Positions 17,037-53,003 of a stretch of 64,000 nt of DNA are shown piece by piece. Where the stretch lies: contig JBGPQV010000002.1 of NCBI GenBank assembly GCA_041489255.1, positions 64,001-128,000 on the forward strand, in the 5' to 3' direction. The translations under genes and the position numbers were made by a program. The notes below the pieces were generated by a model that was not told where the DNA came from, searched no databases, and saw nothing but the letters and a program-made list of their open reading frames with translations. How positions within the stretch are numbered: position 1 is the first letter of the stretch; each line of letters starts with the position of its first letter. This stretch comes from Thermoplasmata archaeon. Lineage in GTDB: Archaea; Thermoplasmatota; Thermoplasmata; RBG-16-68-12; JAFNFQ01.

Positions 17037-17589
17037 CGGTCGCTTTCTTGCCGGAGGTCTTCTCAAAGAGAGCCTTGGACAGAGCCTGGAATGCCTCCTC
17101 GACGTTCTCGCCTTTCTTGGCGGAGGTGAAGAAATACGGGGCGTCGAACGCCTCCGTCGCCTGTTTGACCTCCTCCTCGCCGAATGCCGCCTTGTTCTTC
17201 AGGTCCATCTTGTTTATGGCGAACACCACGGGTATCTCGCCGACAGTCCTGAAAACCGACTCCACCCATCCATCCAGGTCCCCGAGAGTCTCCTCGCGCG
17301 TCACATCGCAGACGGCCAGTATCCCCTGGGCCCCGTGAAAGTATGCCTCGCGGAGCAGCTCCCTGAACCCTTTCGAGCCCATTATGTCCCAAATGGTCAT
17401 GTCCATGGACACTGGAGATTCGCCCTCCATGGACATCTCGAACTCTTTCTTGGAGACCTTCGCACCGAGGGTCGTGATATACCTGTCATCGAACTCATCC
17501 AGAACGTATCTGCGGATCAGCGATGTCTTGCCGACCGCATGCTCTCCAACCAAGCATATCTTCGACTTCATCAGTTGCGTTTCGGTCAA
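17029..17589 (-). CDS. Rab/Ras-like small GTPase
   Basis: G1 GEHAVGKTS, G2 YITTLG, G3 WDIMG, G4 NKMD, G5 SAK; 186 aa; no C-terminal Cys prenylation motif. Confidence 0.9.
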   Translation of the reverse strand: MTETQLMKSKICLVGEHAVGKTSLIRRYVLDEFDDRYITTLGAKVSKKEFEMSMEGESPVSMDMTIWDIMGSKGFRELLREAYFHGAQGILAVCDVTREETLGDLDGWVESVFRTVGEIPVVFAINKMDLKNKAAFGEEEVKQATEAFDAPYFFTSAKKGENVEEAFQALSKALFEKTSGKKATVK

Positions 17590-17798
17590 TTCGTCGGCCT
17601 CCGTGCTTCAAGCGAGACAAGGGCGGTCATTTCGGTTTCATTCATGCCGCGTCCACTCCCTGCATCGGATTCGGTACTCGAATGACCTCCGAGTACTTAG
17701 CAATTTTGCAGTGGTTCTCTTCCGTGAATCGCGACGCGGCCAATCACCGACCGGACTGGTCGGCCAATCGTTATATAACGCCCCTCGAATGCAACCGC

Positions 17799-18725
17799 GT
17801 GGATGGCTTCGCGGCTTTCCGCGTCCTCACCGGTCTGGCTTTCCTCGGCTTCGCCTCATGCCGAGACTTGAAAACGCGCCGCGTTCCCGATGAGGTCTGG
17901 ATCGTGATGGGCGTCTTGGCCCTGGTTTTGCTCGAGGTCGAACTCGTCCAAGGGGGAGCCTCCTGGGAACATCAGCTACTCCTTGTCCCGACTGCGATTA
18001 TCTTCTTCGGCGTCTTCTTCGGGGAGGAGATGTGGACCGAGGAAGGATTCAGATTGAGACCCATCAGACTCATCGTCTACGCAGTTGCAGGCCTGCTCTT
18101 GGCGTTCCTCGCGTATCATTTCTGGAGCACGAGCGGCAGCGATTCCAATGCGTTCTGGGGCCACCTGAGCATGCCCATAATGCTCGTCCTCGCTCACGTG
18201 TTTTACCAGTTCGGGTTGCTTCGCGGCGGGGCGGATGCAAAGGCGTTCATGTCGATTGCCATCCTCGTGCCAATCTATCCGAGCATTGGACCCGGACTAC
18301 CGCTCGTTAGTCTCTCCCCGACCATCCAGCATGCCGTCGATCTGATGTTTCCTTTCGCGCTCGTCGCCCTCCTTGACGCTGCGCTCCTGCTTGTGTTCCT
18401 ACCGCTGTTCTTCCTGGTATTCAATGCATTACGTGGAGACGCCAAGGGAATCCAAGCACTTTTCGGCTACCGAGTCGGCATCGACAAAGTGCCCAAGTTC
18501 GTCTGGCTGATGGACAGGGTGGAGAACGGCAAGCATCTCAGGATCCTTCTGCCTCGGAAGAGGGAGGACCGGAATGAACAGATCGCGAGGCTACGAGAGA
18601 AAGGCTTCGACCGCGTGTGGGTGACGCCGCAGATTCCATTCCTCGTGCCCATGACCTTCGGGTTTGCCGCGGCCTTCCTTGTGGGCAACTTCAGCTTAGG
18701 CCTGACGCTGCTGTTCGGGCGGTGA
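17799..18725 (+). CDS. A24 family prepilin/prearchaellin peptidase (FlaK/PibD-like)
   Basis: ASCRDLKTRRV, GGADAKA, C-terminal VWVTPQIPFLVP. GTG at 17799 lies about 25 nt after TTATATAA (17771-17778). Confidence 0.88.
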   Translation: MDGFAAFRVLTGLAFLGFASCRDLKTRRVPDEVWIVMGVLALVLLEVELVQGGASWEHQLLLVPTAIIFFGVFFGEEMWTEEGFRLRPIRLIVYAVAGLLLAFLAYHFWSTSGSDSNAFWGHLSMPIMLVLAHVFYQFGLLRGGADAKAFMSIAILVPIYPSIGPGLPLVSLSPTIQHAVDLMFPFALVALLDAALLLVFLPLFFLVFNALRGDAKGIQALFGYRVGIDKVPKFVWLMDRVENGKHLRILLPRKREDRNEQIARLREKGFDRVWVTPQIPFLVPMTFGFAAAFLVGNFSLGLTLLFGR

Positions 18726-18740
18726 ATGAGCGGGATTCCG

Positions 18741-18760
18741 GAAAAAGAAGCCTTTTATAG
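18741..18760 (+). promoter_or_regulatory. BRE/TATA promoter of the 5S rRNA gene
   Basis: Purine-rich GAAAAAGAAG followed by CCTTTTATAG, ending about 27 nt upstream of the 5S 5' end. Confidence 0.7.
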
Positions 18761-18786
18761 GGCCGATGTTCTACTTCCCGACAGCA

Positions 18787-18975
18787 GTGGTACGACGGTC
18801 AAAGCGGCGGTGATACACCCGGTCTCTTTCCGAACCCGGAAGTTAAGCCCGTCCACGTTCTCCGCTGTACTGTGGTGCGCGAGCACACGGGAAGCCTATC
18901 CCCGTAAGGGGCCTCCGGCAAGCGACCTAGGTACGCTAGCCGCCTACCCTTGTGGTAGGTGACGAAACGTACCGC
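18787..18975 (+). rRNA. rrf: 5S rRNA, atypical (about 189 nt, expanded 3' domain)
   Basis: 18787-18895 matches the archaeal 5S consensus (ACACCCGGTCTC..TCCGAACCCGGAAGTTAAGCCC...GTACTG...GCGAG...CGGGAA). The 5' GTGGTACG pairs with CGTACCGC at 18968-18975, with 72 non-canonical nt between 18895 and 18968. Confidence 0.85.
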
Positions 18976-18976
18976 T

Positions 18977-21900
18977 TTAACGGCCGTTTGTCGGTGGAAC
19001 GCTGTCGGCCACTGCCTCGCGCTTCTTTCTCTTTCTGCTGAGGAACCTCTGGCCCGCGAAGATGAACATGGGTATCGCGATCGGGATGATCACGTCCTGG
19101 AATTCAGGGATGATCACGGTTGCCGACGCCTTGCTCTCCGACAATTTATACCCACTCTGCGAGGTGTAGTTCAGGAACACCCAGTTCACCAGTATCGAGT
19201 TCTGTGCAGGGTTCTTGATCTGCACCGTGATCGTGAAGCTGTGCGCGCCCGGACCCACGTTCGCGAAAATCCAACGGTACGTCTGGCCGCTCCACGAAGA
19301 AGGAGCGACGCTCGCTCCGAGATACGTCACGTCGGTCGGCAGCGTGTCGTTGATCCACACCCTCAGGGCGTTGGCGCTGCCCGTGTTGTTGAAGTAGATT
19401 GTGTAGGTGACGATCGCACCAGGGACCGTCACAGATGGCGATGCAGTTTTCTCAACCTTGATTGTCGGCCTCCGGCACGTGAAGTTCGCCCACGAAACGC
19501 TGCGCTCCATCCATCTGCCAAGCTGATCCGTGTAGTTGCCGAAGACCGTGTTCACTTGGAGGGTGCTATCCTGGGCATTTCCGTTCACCTGAGCGATAAT
19601 CGTGAACGACCTTGGAGCTCCAGCAGGAACATTGGCGAATCTCCATCTGTAGGTGTTCCCGCTCCAGGAAAATGGAGGGACGCTGCTGGAGTAGAAGGTG
19701 ACTCCGGCAGGGAGTGTGTCGTTGATCCACACCGCTCTCGACACTGCATCGCCCGTGTTGTTGTAATAGACGGTGTATTGGACGTAGTCGCCCGGACCAG
19801 CGATCAGCACATTCAGCGTTTTCACGACCCTGATGATTGGGCGATATCTGTCGTTGGGCCCACCTCTGGTCGGAATGCTGGACACATACCAATCTGAATT
19901 CGCATCCGTGTCGACTGGTTTGCCGTCGCTCGCCGCTTTGAATCGGGCCCAAGTCTGCGTCGTGCTGATCGAGGGATATGTAGTCGCATCGACAATCGTG
20001 TTGGCTGAATCCCTGAGGATAATGTTGCCGTTGGAACCCGGGAGGTCGCCTGAGGGAATATTGACCGAGAGATACTCGGCGCCGCTCAACCACGATCCGA
20101 TAATCTCCGTCGTGAATGTGTAGATTGTGATGTACTTGTTCCCTTTGATGATCTGCAGTCTCCACCCACTGAGAGCGACCGGAGAGGATGTGGGGTTCGC
20201 GAGTTCCACCCACGCGGCTCCTTTTTGAGGATATATCTCGTTGATGACAACGTTGTCGCCAGCAGGGGATCGCACGCCGTATCTCCCTCCCCTCGTGAGG
20301 AGAGGTGAGACTGAGTCGGTGTCGCGCAACCAGTCGGTCATGTAGACGATGACCCTGAAACCTGGCACGAGGCCGAACACGGTGGCATTCGCCGCCATCT
20401 CCAACCTGCCAGAGTCGATGGCAGCCGCGACATTTCCCATCCATTCGAACGGCACATTCGCGTTCGGGCGGTACCTGAAAAGGCTCGCATTGTTGAGCTG
20501 CCCCTGGCGCCCATTCGCCACGAGCGCATAGTCGACACCATAGACCTGGCCTTCGATCTCCGTATAGAGACCTGTCGCAGTGCTGTTGTCCGCGTCGACG
20601 TACGCAAATGCCGTGTCCATGCCGGTGGGGACGTTGTAGGAGAAAGGCCCCACGTATCGCGACACAATCCTCCCTGCGTAGGGAGCTGGGAAATAGCTAG
20701 GGATCGTCGCGTTGAGCCAGAAGTCCGAGCCTGCGGGATAATCGAGAACGCCGTCCGCATCAACATCGCCATTCGATTGACTGTCAGGGGTTCCGTCGTT
20801 GTTGAAGTCATCCGGAAGAGAATCTATTGAGTCGGGCACCGTGTCCCCATCTGCATCCGTGAATTGCGCTGGAATCGGCCTTTCTCTGAGATTGGGTAGG
20901 TCCTCACCACCAAGCATCCGACCCTGAACCTTCATGTAGAAAGCGAAATCGGCAGTGACATTCAGCCCGACCTCCGCGATGTCGACGTTCGTGTTGATCG
21001 ATTCCAGGCCTCCGGAGGAGCGCACATCCCATAGTCCGTCCCTTTGAACCTTCGCCGCGTCCCAATCCCCAAACACCCCATCGATGGTCACCTTGGGCGC
21101 TTGGCGGTAGTAGGTCCCCGAGATAATCGAGTCCTTGAGATCCACGAGTGAATTTGTGGATATGGCAGAAACCTTGAGCGTCAGCGAGCTCGCATCCGGG
21201 GCAGCTGAGAGGTGCGCAACCACGAAGAGCGAGACGCTCTCCCCCTCTCTAATCGTCAGGTCGACTCCGAGACTGCCGATTCCAGAGATGAACGAGGATG
21301 TGTTGAGCAGCGTGTCAGCAGGCTCGTACGTCCCATCGTTGTCGTCAAGATGAAGGCTCAGCACCACGGACTGGTCGGGCATCGAACCCTGCTTGGTGAC
21401 GTTGACGGCATGGATTGTGCTCGAACCTGCCTCGGCCCGCAGGCGCACATAGAGGAAAGCTTGATCGTCAACCGTCATGATGTCGCTCACGAGAGTCCTC
21501 TGGGTCACTGCGAGCGTGGAATATGCCACACATGCGACGTCATCCGCGATGTCGATCACTCCGGTCGTGTTCGCGGTTAGAACGATGATGTGGGCCTCGC
21601 TTGGTTCGGCCAACGGCATCATGAACTCGAGCATGCTTCCTGAAGTCGCTGCCGCGATCGCATTTCTGTGCGAGAACGCAGAGAGATTGTTCTGACCCCC
21701 GCCAAGCCCCGAAGTCCATTCCGAGACTCTCGAACCCGCCATCTTTCCATCATAGCCGCTGATCAGAACGTCCATATCGGCACCTATGCCGCCTATCGAA
21801 TATCCTGTGGACGGTCGCCCGTCCGCGTCCACCATGATTATGATATAATCAATGAGGTCCGGTGCGGCGGGAGCACTCGGTGTGTCGAACATGACTCCGT

Positions 21901-23674
21901 CGACCTCGACATATACGGCGAGCTGCCCATCTTGCGAGGAGACCTTTGTTGATACGATATCCAGGTCAGAGCGGTAGGAGACATTGGCTCCCCTTGTGTC
22001 CCCGACCGCGTCGTCATGCGTCGGGATTCCTGCCCAGTCTGAGAAGCTGCCATCGACTCTCAGGATCGTCGTCTGAGGCCCGCTTGGGATGAGAGTTGCT
22101 ATCAACGGCGCGAGGAGGAGAATCGCGATTACGGCAGCGACTACGCCTGCGGACCTGAACCAGCCTCGTTCCGCACGGTAGATCGGCTGGAACCTTCCGC
22201 GCCTTCCGTTGGTGAAGCCGTTCCCATTCACTAGGCCGTTCACATGACCTATGCCGTTGACGAGGCCGTACACTCTCCCCAAGCCGTTGACCAGGCCGTT
22301 GGTCCTCCCGATGCCGTTCACAAGACCGTTCGTCCTTCCGAGACCGTTGACCAAGCCGTTCGTCCGGCCAATGCCGTTAACCAAGCCATTGGTTCGGCCT
22401 AGCCCGTTGACAAGGCCGTTGGTTCTCCCGATCCCGTTGACCAGCCCGTTGACGCGCCCTTCCCTCGGCGTCCCTTTTGCGCGGGGAACGCCGACCGTCC
22501 TCAGACCTTCGAGAGCTTTCCGCTCGCCCTCCATCTTCATGCGGCGGACGTCTTTGGCGCGCGCCCTCGATGTGTCAGCCTCCTCGTTCCTGCCAAGCCT
22601 CTGCAAGAGCTCCGCCCTCGTCTCCCACGCGACATCGAGCCTCGAATCCGATCGAAGGAGGCGCTCGTAGTAGCTGAGCGCTTTCTGGATTGCCGATATC
22701 TCCGTGGCAGGTTTCTCCGGCGGCGCCATCGCCGACCATCGTGGCGGTATCAAGGACGAGTCGGCCAGGGTCTCGGCCAGGTTCAGGACCTGCAGTCTGT
22801 ACTCCTCATCCCTGGCGGGATTGATCTTCGCTGCCCTCTCGAGGCATTGCACCGCCTCCTTGGGCCGCCCGAGCTCACGGAGAACGTGCGACTTCAGTAC
22901 CCAAGCCCTTTCGAGCTTCGGGTCAACTTCCAGCAGTTCTTCGTAGTGTCTCAACTCCTCGCCGAGCTGGTCCGCTCTTGTCGGAGTCTTCTCGGCGACC
23001 CTCTGCCAGCGGGCGAGGAAGTCTTGGGAAACGCCTTTGCTTTCCTTGATCTCTGGGGCCGGGATTTCCCCAAGAACGGTTTCCTCGGCGGATGAATAAC
23101 CGCATATGCCGCACCTCTCTGCCCCGGGAGCGAGGAAGGCGCCACAATGGGGGCAGACCTTGACCTCCTCCTTCTCAACCTGTGTGACGACTTCCCTGGG
23201 GAGCTCCTCCTCCACCGCCTCAGCCTCTTCGATCACCTGATGGCATGTGGAACAACTCTCGGCATCCTTGGACAGGAATGCGCCGCAATTGGAGCAGATA
23301 TAGAGCGCCGGCTGCTCGGAGACTCCCTTGGCGGGCTCCGCCGCTGGAGCAGGCGCCCCGTCTTCCTCCTCTTCGAACTCCGTGCCGCATTGAGGACAGA
23401 TCTCCGAGTCTGCACTGGCGAATGCGCCGCAGACAGGGCAAATGAACAGCTCCGCCTTATTGGAATACCATCGGTCGCCTATGGAGATCGACTCGGAGGC
23501 CTTCGCCCTCACCGCGGTTGCCTCCTCCAGGGAGAGCACGCATGATTCCGCGATCGCCTCCGGAGTGGCATCCGCAAGGTCATCGATCCGCGGGTACCTT
23601 GCGCGGACTCTCGCCGCCTTCTCGCGGTCGAGGTCGCAGGTCGTCAGTAGCCACTCTTCGTACAGCTCATCCAT
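18977..23674 (-). CDS. 1565-aa multidomain membrane protein: HhH-like, three zinc ribbons, TPRs, Asn-Gly repeats, TM, large ectodomain with lamin-tail-like and DUF11-like domains, PEF-CTERM-like tail
   Basis: CPVC/CPQC, CSNC/CSTC, CPHC/CGIC; TPR-like AWVLKSHVLRELGR; (GRTNGLVNG[IL])n; TM VVAAVIAILLLAPLIA; VVINEIYP...WVELANP; two YT.YYNNTG...INDTLP repeats; IPEF + TM + RKRKKR. Confidence 0.85.
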   Translation of the reverse strand: MDELYEEWLLTTCDLDREKAARVRARYPRIDDLADATPEAIAESCVLSLEEATAVRAKASESISIGDRWYSNKAELFICPVCGAFASADSEICPQCGTEFEEEEDGAPAPAAEPAKGVSEQPALYICSNCGAFLSKDAESCSTCHQVIEEAEAVEEELPREVVTQVEKEEVKVCPHCGAFLAPGAERCGICGYSSAEETVLGEIPAPEIKESKGVSQDFLARWQRVAEKTPTRADQLGEELRHYEELLEVDPKLERAWVLKSHVLRELGRPKEAVQCLERAAKINPARDEEYRLQVLNLAETLADSSLIPPRWSAMAPPEKPATEISAIQKALSYYERLLRSDSRLDVAWETRAELLQRLGRNEEADTSRARAKDVRRMKMEGERKALEGLRTVGVPRAKGTPREGRVNGLVNGIGRTNGLVNGLGRTNGLVNGIGRTNGLVNGLGRTNGLVNGIGRTNGLVNGLGRVYGLVNGIGHVNGLVNGNGFTNGRRGRFQPIYRAERGWFRSAGVVAAVIAILLLAPLIATLIPSGPQTTILRVDGSFSDWAGIPTHDDAVGDTRGANVSYRSDLDIVSTKVSSQDGQLAVYVEVDGVMFDTPSAPAAPDLIDYIIIMVDADGRPSTGYSIGGIGADMDVLISGYDGKMAGSRVSEWTSGLGGGQNNLSAFSHRNAIAAATSGSMLEFMMPLAEPSEAHIIVLTANTTGVIDIADDVACVAYSTLAVTQRTLVSDIMTVDDQAFLYVRLRAEAGSSTIHAVNVTKQGSMPDQSVVLSLHLDDNDGTYEPADTLLNTSSFISGIGSLGVDLTIREGESVSLFVVAHLSAAPDASSLTLKVSAISTNSLVDLKDSIISGTYYRQAPKVTIDGVFGDWDAAKVQRDGLWDVRSSGGLESINTNVDIAEVGLNVTADFAFYMKVQGRMLGGEDLPNLRERPIPAQFTDADGDTVPDSIDSLPDDFNNDGTPDSQSNGDVDADGVLDYPAGSDFWLNATIPSYFPAPYAGRIVSRYVGPFSYNVPTGMDTAFAYVDADNSTATGLYTEIEGQVYGVDYALVANGRQGQLNNASLFRYRPNANVPFEWMGNVAAAIDSGRLEMAANATVFGLVPGFRVIVYMTDWLRDTDSVSPLLTRGGRYGVRSPAGDNVVINEIYPQKGAAWVELANPTSSPVALSGWRLQIIKGNKYITIYTFTTEIIGSWLSGAEYLSVNIPSGDLPGSNGNIILRDSANTIVDATTYPSISTTQTWARFKAASDGKPVDTDANSDWYVSSIPTRGGPNDRYRPIIRVVKTLNVLIAGPGDYVQYTVYYNNTGDAVSRAVWINDTLPAGVTFYSSSVPPFSWSGNTYRWRFANVPAGAPRSFTIIAQVNGNAQDSTLQVNTVFGNYTDQLGRWMERSVSWANFTCRRPTIKVEKTASPSVTVPGAIVTYTIYFNNTGSANALRVWINDTLPTDVTYLGASVAPSSWSGQTYRWIFANVGPGAHSFTITVQIKNPAQNSILVNWVFLNYTSQSGYKLSESKASATVIIPEFQDVIIPIAIPMFIFAGQRFLSRKRKKREAVADSVPPTNGR
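22206..22459 (-). repeat. Intragenic 30-bp tandem repeat, about 8 copies, encoding GRTNGLVNG(I/L)
   Basis: Recurrent gccgtt/gacc units at 30-bp period; synonymous codons differ between copies. Confidence 0.92.
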
Positions 23675-52755: not shown

Positions 52756-52869
52756 GTCGAAGAAGCCATGACAGGCGTGAGCCCGTCGGATAACATTCTG
52801 ATCGAAAGTCGAAATCCACAGCGTGCGATTGAGCTTGCGGAATCCGATTTATCACAGTTCGGAGAAGCA

Positions 52870-52942
52870 TGCCCGGGGAGGGAGTTGAACCCCCAGGAAA
52901 CGGATCTGCAGTCCGTCACATTGGCCGCTCTGTCACCCGGGC
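52870..52942 (-). tRNA. tRNA-Cys(GCA), no intron, CCA not encoded, discriminator A73
   Basis: GCCCGGG/CCCGGGC acceptor stem, ACGGA-CTGCAGA-TCCGT anticodon arm, GGGGG-TTCAACT-CCCTC T arm; upstream AAAAAAGGTTAA promoter-like sequence (52971-52982). Confidence 0.93.
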
Positions 52943-53003
52943 AGCGCGCGAACGATTGGCGGTACGATAGTTAACCTTTTTTATCTCAGGACGACCTCGT
53001 CCG

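Follow-up and report, generated by a model that had tools for sequence, protein, structure and literature searches.

Large expansions of ribosomal RNA (rRNA) are rare in archaea. The insertion in the 5S rRNA of Halococcus was reportedly described by Luehrsen et al. in 1981, and the eukaryote-like expansion segments ES9 and ES39 of Asgard archaea are said to lie in 23S rRNA. The subject here is a gene for an expanded 5S rRNA in a Thermoplasmata archaeon, found on the forward strand of a stretch of 64,000 nucleotides (nt) that was analysed at its full length (the window; GenBank assembly GCA_041489255.1, contig JBGPQV010000002.1, positions 64,001 to 128,000, numbered below from its first letter), in which a segment of 100 nt lies within helix V. 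Like the Asgard segments, it would add structured RNA to the ribosome surface throughout an archaeal lineage, here in 5S and not in 23S rRNA.

In the survey of Stepanov and Fox (2021, PMC7812874), which covered nt, RefSeq, Rfam and 5SrRNAdb and in whose text the string 'metagenom' is absent, 5S expansions are assigned to 17 insertion sites and 15 structural types. Archaeal examples are given there only for Halococcus, Halalkalicoccus, Halomarina and Halodesulfurarchaeum, all of one structural type. In the Halococcus-Halalkalicoccus cluster the insert measures 108 nt, adjoins loop E and separates core positions 104.1 and 105; the haloarchaeal insert has been regarded as a local peculiarity that spread by transfer and may reflect adaptation to salt (PMC7812874). 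Cryo-electron microscopy (cryo-EM) placed the Halococcus morrhuae insert in the ribosome, where it branches from a four-way junction, leaves the core undisturbed and is flexible (Tirumalai et al. 2020, PMC7530397). Other prokaryotic expansions, those of Thermoanaerobacterium and its relatives, Peptococcaceae, Halanaerobiales and Pseudoalteromonas, are likewise independently folding helical modules on an intact core, but these bacterial segments, going by their description in the survey, differ in site (the helix III bulge, for example), in structural type and in often standing beside normal 5S copies (PMC7812874).

The window's gene shares with the Halococcus type an insert 3' of loop E in helix V, a 5S rRNA of roughly doubled length that is the only type in the cell, and an intact core. 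It differs in its hosts, which are Thermoplasmatota known mostly from metagenome-assembled genomes (MAGs) of non-halophilic soil, peat, sediment and groundwater, in the length of the insert (100 nt as against about 108-110), in a distal arm that is shorter and unrelated in sequence, and in a distribution over whole families and several classes instead of four genera; it is known from genes and RNA contigs, whereas the Halococcus type has been seen in the ribosome by cryo-EM. A preliminary description of the locus, prepared from the window's letters, had rightly chosen Halococcus morrhuae for comparison and had suggested a new archaeal expansion segment. For Thermoplasmatota the segment is indeed undescribed in the papers searched, but it and the Halococcus insert are apparently of one kind. 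A full-text literature search, subscription journals and supplements lying outside it, gave no account of an expanded 5S rRNA in Thermoplasmata or Thermoplasmatota, and the accessible portions of two reviews that name both Thermoplasmata and the Halococcus insert make no mention of one.

An expanded 5S rRNA gene, its fold and its transcripts

The sole 5S rRNA match in an Rfam cmscan of the window lies at 18791-18910 and scores 64 bits against the RF00001 cut-off of 38. A whole-genome search with the same model, a check that the preliminary description had proposed, returns no other copy in the 2.74-Mb, 96.5%-complete genome, giving a copy number of one. The end of the Rfam alignment is strained: helix I pairs are flagged as non-standard, and the final 15 nt are forced onto insert sequence. 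The 5' part of the canonical core, delimited by the cmscan alignment and by pair counts for helices 1-6, occupies 18791-18895 and holds the helix I 5' strand, helices II and III, the helix V 5' strand (CGTTCT, 18856-18861, plus GC, 18864-18865), loop E, helix IV and GGGAAGC (18889-18895), beyond which, as had been proposed, a large structured expansion takes over.

Within the same order, 39 of 41 genomes (seven families, ten genera) have a 5S match, the two without being 78% and 89% complete, and downstream flanks were inspected at 39 loci from 38 genomes, one of which has two copies. All 39 loci carry the insert: beyond GGGAAG come about 95-115 nt of mutually related sequence and then a conserved block, GGAACG-CYGTCRGCC; 37 of them reach the block, while contig ends stop the other two (L012 and L036) short of it. 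This block supplies the strands that the core lacks. GGAACG (18996-19001) pairs with CGUUCU (18856-18861) as the 3' strand of proximal helix V, which is 96.8% paired in 36 distinct full-length sequences of the order, with one pair changing from U-A to C-G. The adjoining CUGUCGGCC (CTGTCGGCC as DNA, 19002-19010) pairs with the 5' end of the gene as the 3' strand of helix I, 95.8% paired in the same 36 sequences with 4 of 12 pairs compensatory, including alignment columns 10/261, where 30 sequences have U-A and 6 have C-G. Further out, the pairs of helix I alternate among GGGAAGGG/CCCUUCCC, GCAGUGG/CCACUGC and CAGCGG/CCGCU, and the helix can lengthen outward through ACUGC to 18784/19015 (18784-18789 with 19010-19015), possibly as a precursor stem. 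With 18996-19010 included, helix I is closed by both ends of the RNA and helix V on both of its strands. Five genomes from insert-free families have an ordinary 5S rRNA of 120-122 nt in which loop E passes directly into the helix V 3' strand, as in GGGAAcCGCGGAAAGCUGUCAGCC. Because the missing strands of helices I and V lie downstream, and because insert-free relatives have the same flanks, the gene is taken to span about 18791-19010 (about 220 nt, plus strand), with a clean insertion of 100 nt at 18896-18995. An intron in the helix I 3' strand that would join CCGT (18902-18905) to CGTACC was entertained as an early idea and dropped because relatives have no CCGT at that place. One locus of the order (L038, G006:C87) has a 9-nt deletion in loop C/helix III of the core and an Rfam score of 45 bits, with its insert intact.

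The structure of the insert was written by hand from the alignment of the order and then counted on the 36 sequences, in which 93.6% of cells form standard pairs as against 28-46% when partners are slid by one to three columns; 28 of 70 pairs have changed on both sides, and the covariation score was matched by none of 500 shuffles. A covariance model of the insert and the 3' end of the gene, called R1, was used to align 90 further sequences from public genomes, and across the phylum 86.7% of cells in 84 distinct sequences are paired (31-45% when slid), with 29 of 35 insert pairs compensatory, figures that the fitting of this alignment to R1 favours. It is clearly the fold of the insert, and not its sequence, that selection has kept.

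The insert opens, in the hand-written structure, with a linker CUAU (18896-18899) and hairpin A (CCCC-GUAA-GGGG, 18900-18911), which the preliminary description had correctly picked out; in the order 97.2% of its cells pair and 3 of its 5 pairs are compensatory, as against 97.8% and 5 of 5 in the 84 sequences. Stem S then joins CCGGCAAGCGACC (18915-18927) to GGCCGUUUGUCGG (18982-18994), with 12 of 13 pairs forming in the window by hand count; its 14 model pairs are 80.3% paired and 9 compensatory in the order, 12 being compensatory in the wider set. Between stem S and helix K lies an asymmetric internal loop with UA (18928-18929) on its short side and the 8-nt strand GCUUUAAC (18974-18981), conserved across the order, on its long side. 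The A of UA, as well as the G and the penultimate A of GCUUUAAC, are at least 90% conserved phylum-wide (89 distinct Thermoplasmatota sequences in the case of UA) and recur in the haloarchaeal type, whose counterpart of the long strand is GUUACAAC. Helix K itself (GGUACG, 18930-18935, with CGUACC, 18968-18973) is 100% paired in the order; in the 84 sequences 95.8% of its cells pair and 4 of its 6 pairs are compensatory. A conserved internal loop seen in the alignment, CUA (18936-18938) opposite GAAA (18964-18967), leads to the distal arm, hairpin B (18939-18963, loop CUUGU), whose length differs by family and in which 88.3% of cells pair in the order (3 of 5 pairs compensatory) and 80-93% in the wider set (8 of 10). 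The base of the insert is a four-way junction of proximal helix V, distal helix V (GC 18864-18865 with GC 18894-18895), hairpin A and stem S. A reading of the internal loops as K-turns was set aside, there being no fit by eye to the consensus.

A search of an index of public sequencing runs listed 22 runs, 20 of them with part of the stretch and 15, from 11 studies, recorded as RNA. Four metatranscriptomes from four studies were compared, all as assembled contigs and not as raw reads, and the habitats inferred here come from these four. The contig from soil (X1, 192 nt) covers 18793-18983 with 0 differences, that from peat (X3, 179 nt) covers 18831-19009 with 5, that from river (X7, 214 nt) covers 18793-19006 with 6, and sediment (X9) yields 92 nt in two pieces across 18910-19001 with 0 and 4. 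The contigs extend over 18793-19009, with zero depth in the bins 18760-18789 and 19010-19040 in all four runs, and in X3 adapter sequence directly adjoins 18793; this is the pattern that a discrete RNA of about 217 nt would leave, and contaminating DNA would not. No joint that skips the insert is listed in the four metatranscriptomes, although contigs can miss rare forms. Upstream, the promoter (18741-18760) reads as a purine-rich stretch resembling a transcription factor B recognition element (BRE) followed by a TATA-like box, TTTTATAG (18753-18760), and a TATA-like block stands at the matching upstream distance in 38 aligned relatives, so that the earlier recognition of a 5S gene with its own promoter stands. 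The gene is a real, expanded 5S rRNA gene and is expressed, as contigs from RNA libraries attest. The probability is roughly 80% that it is the sole functional 5S gene, transcribed from its own promoter, and that the 100-nt segment, most likely an insert of the Halococcus family, is retained in the stable RNA.

Distribution, history and probable kinship with the Halococcus-type insert

The insert follows family lines. Of 151 genomes sampled in the window's class, 59 gave an R1 match, almost all-or-none by family: the window's own order contributes f2 (4/4), f3 (3/4), f4 (4/4), f6 (1/1) and f7 (4/4), and other families of the class contribute f10 (15/15), f13 (1/1), f14 (9/10), f21 (14/17), f22 (1/1) and f28 (2/2). 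Among the genomes searched it matched none in f12 (0/16), f17 (0/15, a tally that may include G129), f24 (0/12), f15 (0/8), f16 (0/7) or 14 smaller families. A sample of the whole phylum, other classes included, gave 15 matches in 151 genomes (f42 9/9, f40 1/2, f62 and f63), and in that sample f45 (0/16), f52 (0/15), f34 (0/9), f36 (0/9) and f31 (0/8) were unmatched. All loci checked by eye, 18 from the class and 8 from the phylum, are real expansions. A pattern scan of public genomes, one per species, found at least 119 loci, and R1 matched 90 of the first 100, the remaining 19 lying outside that test; the ten misses, nine titled Halobacteria and one other, are 5S genes of normal length with a chance match to the tail of the pattern. 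Record titles, which cover the first 80 loci, name R1-matched hosts as Thermoplasmata or Thermoplasmatota archaeon, 'Methanobacteriota archaeon', uncultured Methanomassiliicoccales, Candidatus (Ca.) Sysuiplasma, Ca. Saliniplasma, Ca. Haladaptatiplasma and UBA10834. There is no isolate among these 80 titles, and the carriers are titled Thermoplasmata or Thermoplasmatota, not Halobacteriales. In all, the same architecture is present in more than 100 independent assemblies.

Several of these loci have features of their own. In one genome of another class (G287) an intact expanded 5S gene (L198, C128:8280-8630) is accompanied about 2.5 kb downstream by a copy of its 3' half (L199, C128:5745-6095), which spans GAGCCCAUGGGAG through the insert to the 3' end, is preceded by unrelated AT-rich sequence and looks like a truncated pseudo-copy. 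At L194, L195, L199, L200 and L201 (f42 and f63, other classes) a conserved ...TCGTTAAACAGGTTGC... precedes the expanded 5S, which suggests for these families a linkage of 5S to a further rRNA gene, whereas the gene in the window stands by itself. Family f40 is split by genus, G193 having an expanded 5S and G183 two normal 5S genes (98.5 and 92.1 bits) with no insert match, a difference that could reflect recent loss, gain, replacement or contamination.

For comparison with haloarchaea, a Haladaptatus locus led to its genome and from there to 151 genomes of its order, from which four low-scoring 5S genes were taken. All four are 231 nt long with an insert after GGGAAAAC, and it is on this length and insertion site that they are called Halococcus-type here. 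Both inserts fall directly after loop E, at the same R1 model positions (core numbering from PMC7812874), and the window's 100 nt, as a secondary structure, reproduce the four-way junction on an unperturbed core that accompanies the insert of about 108 nt. Element by element, the haloarchaeal insert presents a hairpin (CCUC-GCAA-GAGG), a 13-base-pair (bp) stem, a CA/GUUACAAC loop, a helix GGAACG/CGUUCC, an internal loop and a longer arm, an architecture that also emerges when the insert is folded alone and unconstrained. R1, although built from the window's order only, scores the four haloarchaeal 5S genes at 37.8-45.2 bits (E 1e-9 to 8e-8), inside the span covered by true Thermoplasmatota members (36.8-136.8 bits), whereas normal Thermoplasmata 5S genes score at most 19.8 bits and nine normal haloarchaeal 5S loci return nothing at E <=1. 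Because R1 includes 7+18 nt of 5S core, a flank-free model of the insert with its full structure, R3, was built from 14 sequences of the order; it places the haloarchaeal inserts exactly, at 22.4-25.2 bits (E 0.0014-0.007 in 131 kb), the best off-target match scoring 16.9. Haloarchaeal rows form 24-26 of the 35 model pairs as compared to 23-33 (median 30) in Thermoplasmatota rows, with helix K complete (6/6) and 10-11 of 14 pairs in stem S. The haloarchaeal type has the same base at each of the five unpaired positions conserved at 90% or more, and one member of the window's order carries the GUUACAAC strand itself. An R1 count of inserts in whole Halobacteriales genomes was discarded, as it missed the four known positives (22 candidates scored per genome), and a structure-inconsistent alignment (A5) was kept out of the models. 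In the Halobacteriales sample a 5S match was obtained in 118 genomes, of which about 31 have 1e-16 to 1e-13 as their best E and not about 1e-20; the four genes taken, all of the 231-nt form, come from this group, and the Halococcus-type insert may be commoner among the sampled species than four genera imply.

The history of the segment was viewed on a tree of aEF-2 from 80 of about 300 sampled genomes (one to three per family; f5 and f6 left out for want of a usable match, and G129 also left out). Presence of the insert is clustered on this tree, with 11 state changes as against 22 in shuffles, none of 500 being as low; the 'no insert' state includes genomes without an assembled 5S, three of five that were checked. 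Five rows (two of f17 and one each of f36, f53 and f58) are set apart from the rest by a very long branch (4.65 + 5.35 changes per column) despite high profile scores, and may be divergent or paralogous EF-2. In several genomes (G047, G059, G079, G097, G105, G113, G120, G127, G020 and G255, among others) the aEF-2 match begins late, at profile positions 20-32 in frames of about 930-1270 amino acids (aa); an intein or some other inserted element may lie near the N-terminus in one family and in a few other genomes.

Several results weigh against a single old segment retained in the RNA and shared with haloarchaea. The aEF-2 tree splits the window's own order, and on a single-gene tree with 11 changes and a split order, one old gain followed by losses is indistinguishable from several transfers. 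An insert-only model with six pairs from a plain MAFFT alignment (R2) misses the haloarchaeal inserts, and so does an nhmmer profile built from the structure-guided alignment; the E-values of R3 are modest, and it missed 7 of 14 distant Thermoplasmatota controls. Only 5-6 of 12 columns conserved at 90% or more match the haloarchaeal type, and the haloarchaeal distal arm differs. On the side of the RNA, X7 is the only contig that nearly covers the whole molecule, contigs that cross the 3' border of the insert hold only 6-14 letters past it, and the support as a whole consists of contigs, which are silent on ends, abundance and strand and could derive from precursors.

The most serious alternative is that the Thermoplasmatota and Halococcus-type inserts arose independently, the same permissive site tolerating a rod-like, GC-rich arm. 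Sequence-only searches do fail and the distal arms do differ; 5S expansions arise repeatedly (17 sites and 15 types, PMC7812874), and covariance-model scores reward any RNA of matching helix lengths. Against independence stand the identical insertion point and the succession of hairpin, 13-14-bp stem, 2/8-nt loop, 6-bp helix, loop and arm in the same order and lengths, the near identity of helix K (GGAACG/CGUUCC and GGUACG/CGUACC), the occurrence of GUUACAAC in a member of the window's order, the five common unpaired bases out of five, and the exact placement by R3. Independent origin is accordingly judged unlikely, and the chance that the two inserts have a common origin is about three in four. 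If the same insert family is present in both groups, transfer of the expanded 5S gene or of its insert between phyla is implied, and the family-consistent spread in Thermoplasmatota, set against four haloarchaeal genera, suggests that it ran from Thermoplasmatota to haloarchaea. The fuller proposition, that the Halococcus insert is an offshoot of an old, selectively kept Thermoplasmatota segment that crossed phyla and whose loops bind a ribosome-associated partner, we hold to be somewhat better than an even bet.

Possible removal of the insert and other readings of the locus

A second alternative is that the insert is an intervening sequence, spliced out or excised to leave a fragmented 5S rRNA, with a fold that serves processing. 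The extended helix I (18784-18789 with 19010-19015) and the long stem S do resemble processing stems, and the contigs might come from precursors. Nevertheless, contigs of four RNA studies carry the insert, and they break off where the 217-nt RNA ends instead of at the borders of the insert; the spliced junction expected of an archaeal bulge-helix-bulge intron does not appear in them, and no bulge-helix-bulge is evident at the borders by eye, short of a formal scan. Inserts of the Halococcus type are kept in ribosomes (PMC7530397), and the invariant loop nucleotides lie distant from the borders, where a mere spacer would not need them. Removal is thus improbable. The preliminary description had also raised a processed RNA, and here too the metatranscriptome contigs join insert to core with no skipped form.

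Retention of the full segment is at odds with that description over the extent of the RNA. The RNA proposed there was 189 nt long with its end at 18975, had 72 nt in place of the helix V 3' strand and used CGTACC, with two possible partners, as a switch. In support, 18787-18978 folds at -80.7 kcal/mol (z = -2.64), and within the order the 5' GGTAYG pairs with CGTRCC in 91% of cells. This 5' pairing shows no compensatory change, 17 of 36 sequences being unpaired at one of its pairs, and the 5' ends of other families differ (GAGCAAC...) while their helix K still pairs; moreover, the downstream strands of helices I and V covary, and RNA contigs continue to 19006-19009. Hence CGTACC (18968-18973), formerly assigned to the 3' strand of helix I, belongs to helix K, and helix I closes at 19002-19010(15), CTGTCGGCC(ACTGC). 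The helix V 3' strand has not been replaced, since GGAACG sits downstream of the insert, whose length is 100 nt (18896-18995) and not 72. A second GGTACG does exist at 18930-18935, but covariation gives it CGTACC as its partner within the insert, which removes both the choice of two partners and the basis of the switch. The CCTACC/GGTAGG hairpin is a real pairing that forms part of the longer hairpin B, whereas the CGGC/AGCG...CGCT/GCCG stem gave way under counting (72% paired in the order, 55.6% in 92 distinct sequences), and the alternative GCCTA/TAGGT fold, 83.7% paired in the 92 sequences, reaches a value that 414 of 500 column shuffles also reach. The alignment of orthologs that had been recommended and a count of covarying pairs, carried out on 36 and 84 sequences, thus support a different fold, and the shorter RNA is very improbable.

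GCCUA (18894-18898) is complementary to UAGGU (18928-18932), with only the last pair showing A-U, G-U and G-C types, and could form a folding intermediate or a tertiary contact. In the window's order, though not in other families, the 5' end of the 5S rRNA, GGUAYG (18789-18794), resembles the 5' strand of helix K.

Decay to a pseudogene, or an assembly artefact, for which a lowish Rfam score of 64 bits might speak, can be dismissed for a sole 5S copy whose architecture recurs in more than 100 assemblies with strong compensatory change and which agrees with an RNA contig of an unrelated study at every one of 191 nt.

Surroundings of the gene and meaning of the expansion

The 5S gene of the window is a solitary one with a promoter of its own, a further difference from the Halococcus type. 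A scan for bacterial sigma-70 promoters upstream gave no match, as expected for an archaeon, and a scan for bacterial-type terminators found none; downstream, a T-rich tract, CTTCTTTCTCTTTCT (19024-19038, plus strand), is likely an archaeal terminator signal, as read from the sequence. An open reading frame (ORF) at 17523-18725 (plus strand, 400 aa) ends 65 nt before the 5S start at 18791 and has an archaeal peptidase A24 C-terminal domain (PF06847, 49.6 bits), making it prepilin-peptidase-like. On the opposite strand, an ORF of 1565 aa at 18977-23674 has zinc ribbons and tetratricopeptide repeat (TPR), lamin-tail (LTD) and DUF11 domains, and its last 11 or so codons and its stop (18977-18979) overlap the 3' part of the 5S gene. 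Its product ends in ...IPEFQDVIIPIAIPMFIFAGQRFLSRKRKKRE..., which we take to resemble a PEF-type C-terminal sorting signal. In several families the coding region immediately 3' of the 5S gene is conserved. Elsewhere in the window a tRNA-Cys (GCA) gene at 52869-52943 (minus strand) is called by both Rfam and ARAGORN.

How the segment might work can be sketched only in outline. Transcription from the gene's archaeal promoter would yield a stable RNA of about 217-220 nt with the insert kept. The segment would branch off the 3' strand of helix V right after loop E, forming the four-way junction without touching the core, and stem S would bear in turn the 2/8-nt asymmetric loop, the 6-bp helix K, the CUA/GAAA loop and the variable hairpin B. 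By analogy with the Halococcus morrhuae ribosome, this arm may reach out into the solvent at the central protuberance, close to helix 38 of 23S rRNA. The segment would be inherited across many Thermoplasmatota families. Its role might be, at best guess, that of a docking platform for a protein or for adjacent 23S rRNA, and docking might centre on the few invariant unpaired adenines and the guanine of the two internal loops. A salt-specific role is unlikely, given that carriers occur in soil, peat, river and sediment RNA as well as among MAGs with halophile names.

The Halococcus-type family of 5S expansions most likely extends to an unexpected phylum, where its range far exceeds anything in print. 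In mostly non-halophilic Thermoplasmatota, whole families from several classes have the insert in their sole form of 5S rRNA, kept by compensatory evolution, and the Halococcus insert could plausibly have come from them or passed over to them. Since the Rfam model stops at 18910, after about 120 nt, such genes are mis-annotated in MAGs. More than 100 diverse sequences are now at hand for structure inference, where the Halococcus group gave almost none. If the Halococcus insert is indeed an offshoot of the Thermoplasmatota segment, the origin and function of the largest known prokaryotic 5S expansion would become testable across hundreds of genomes.

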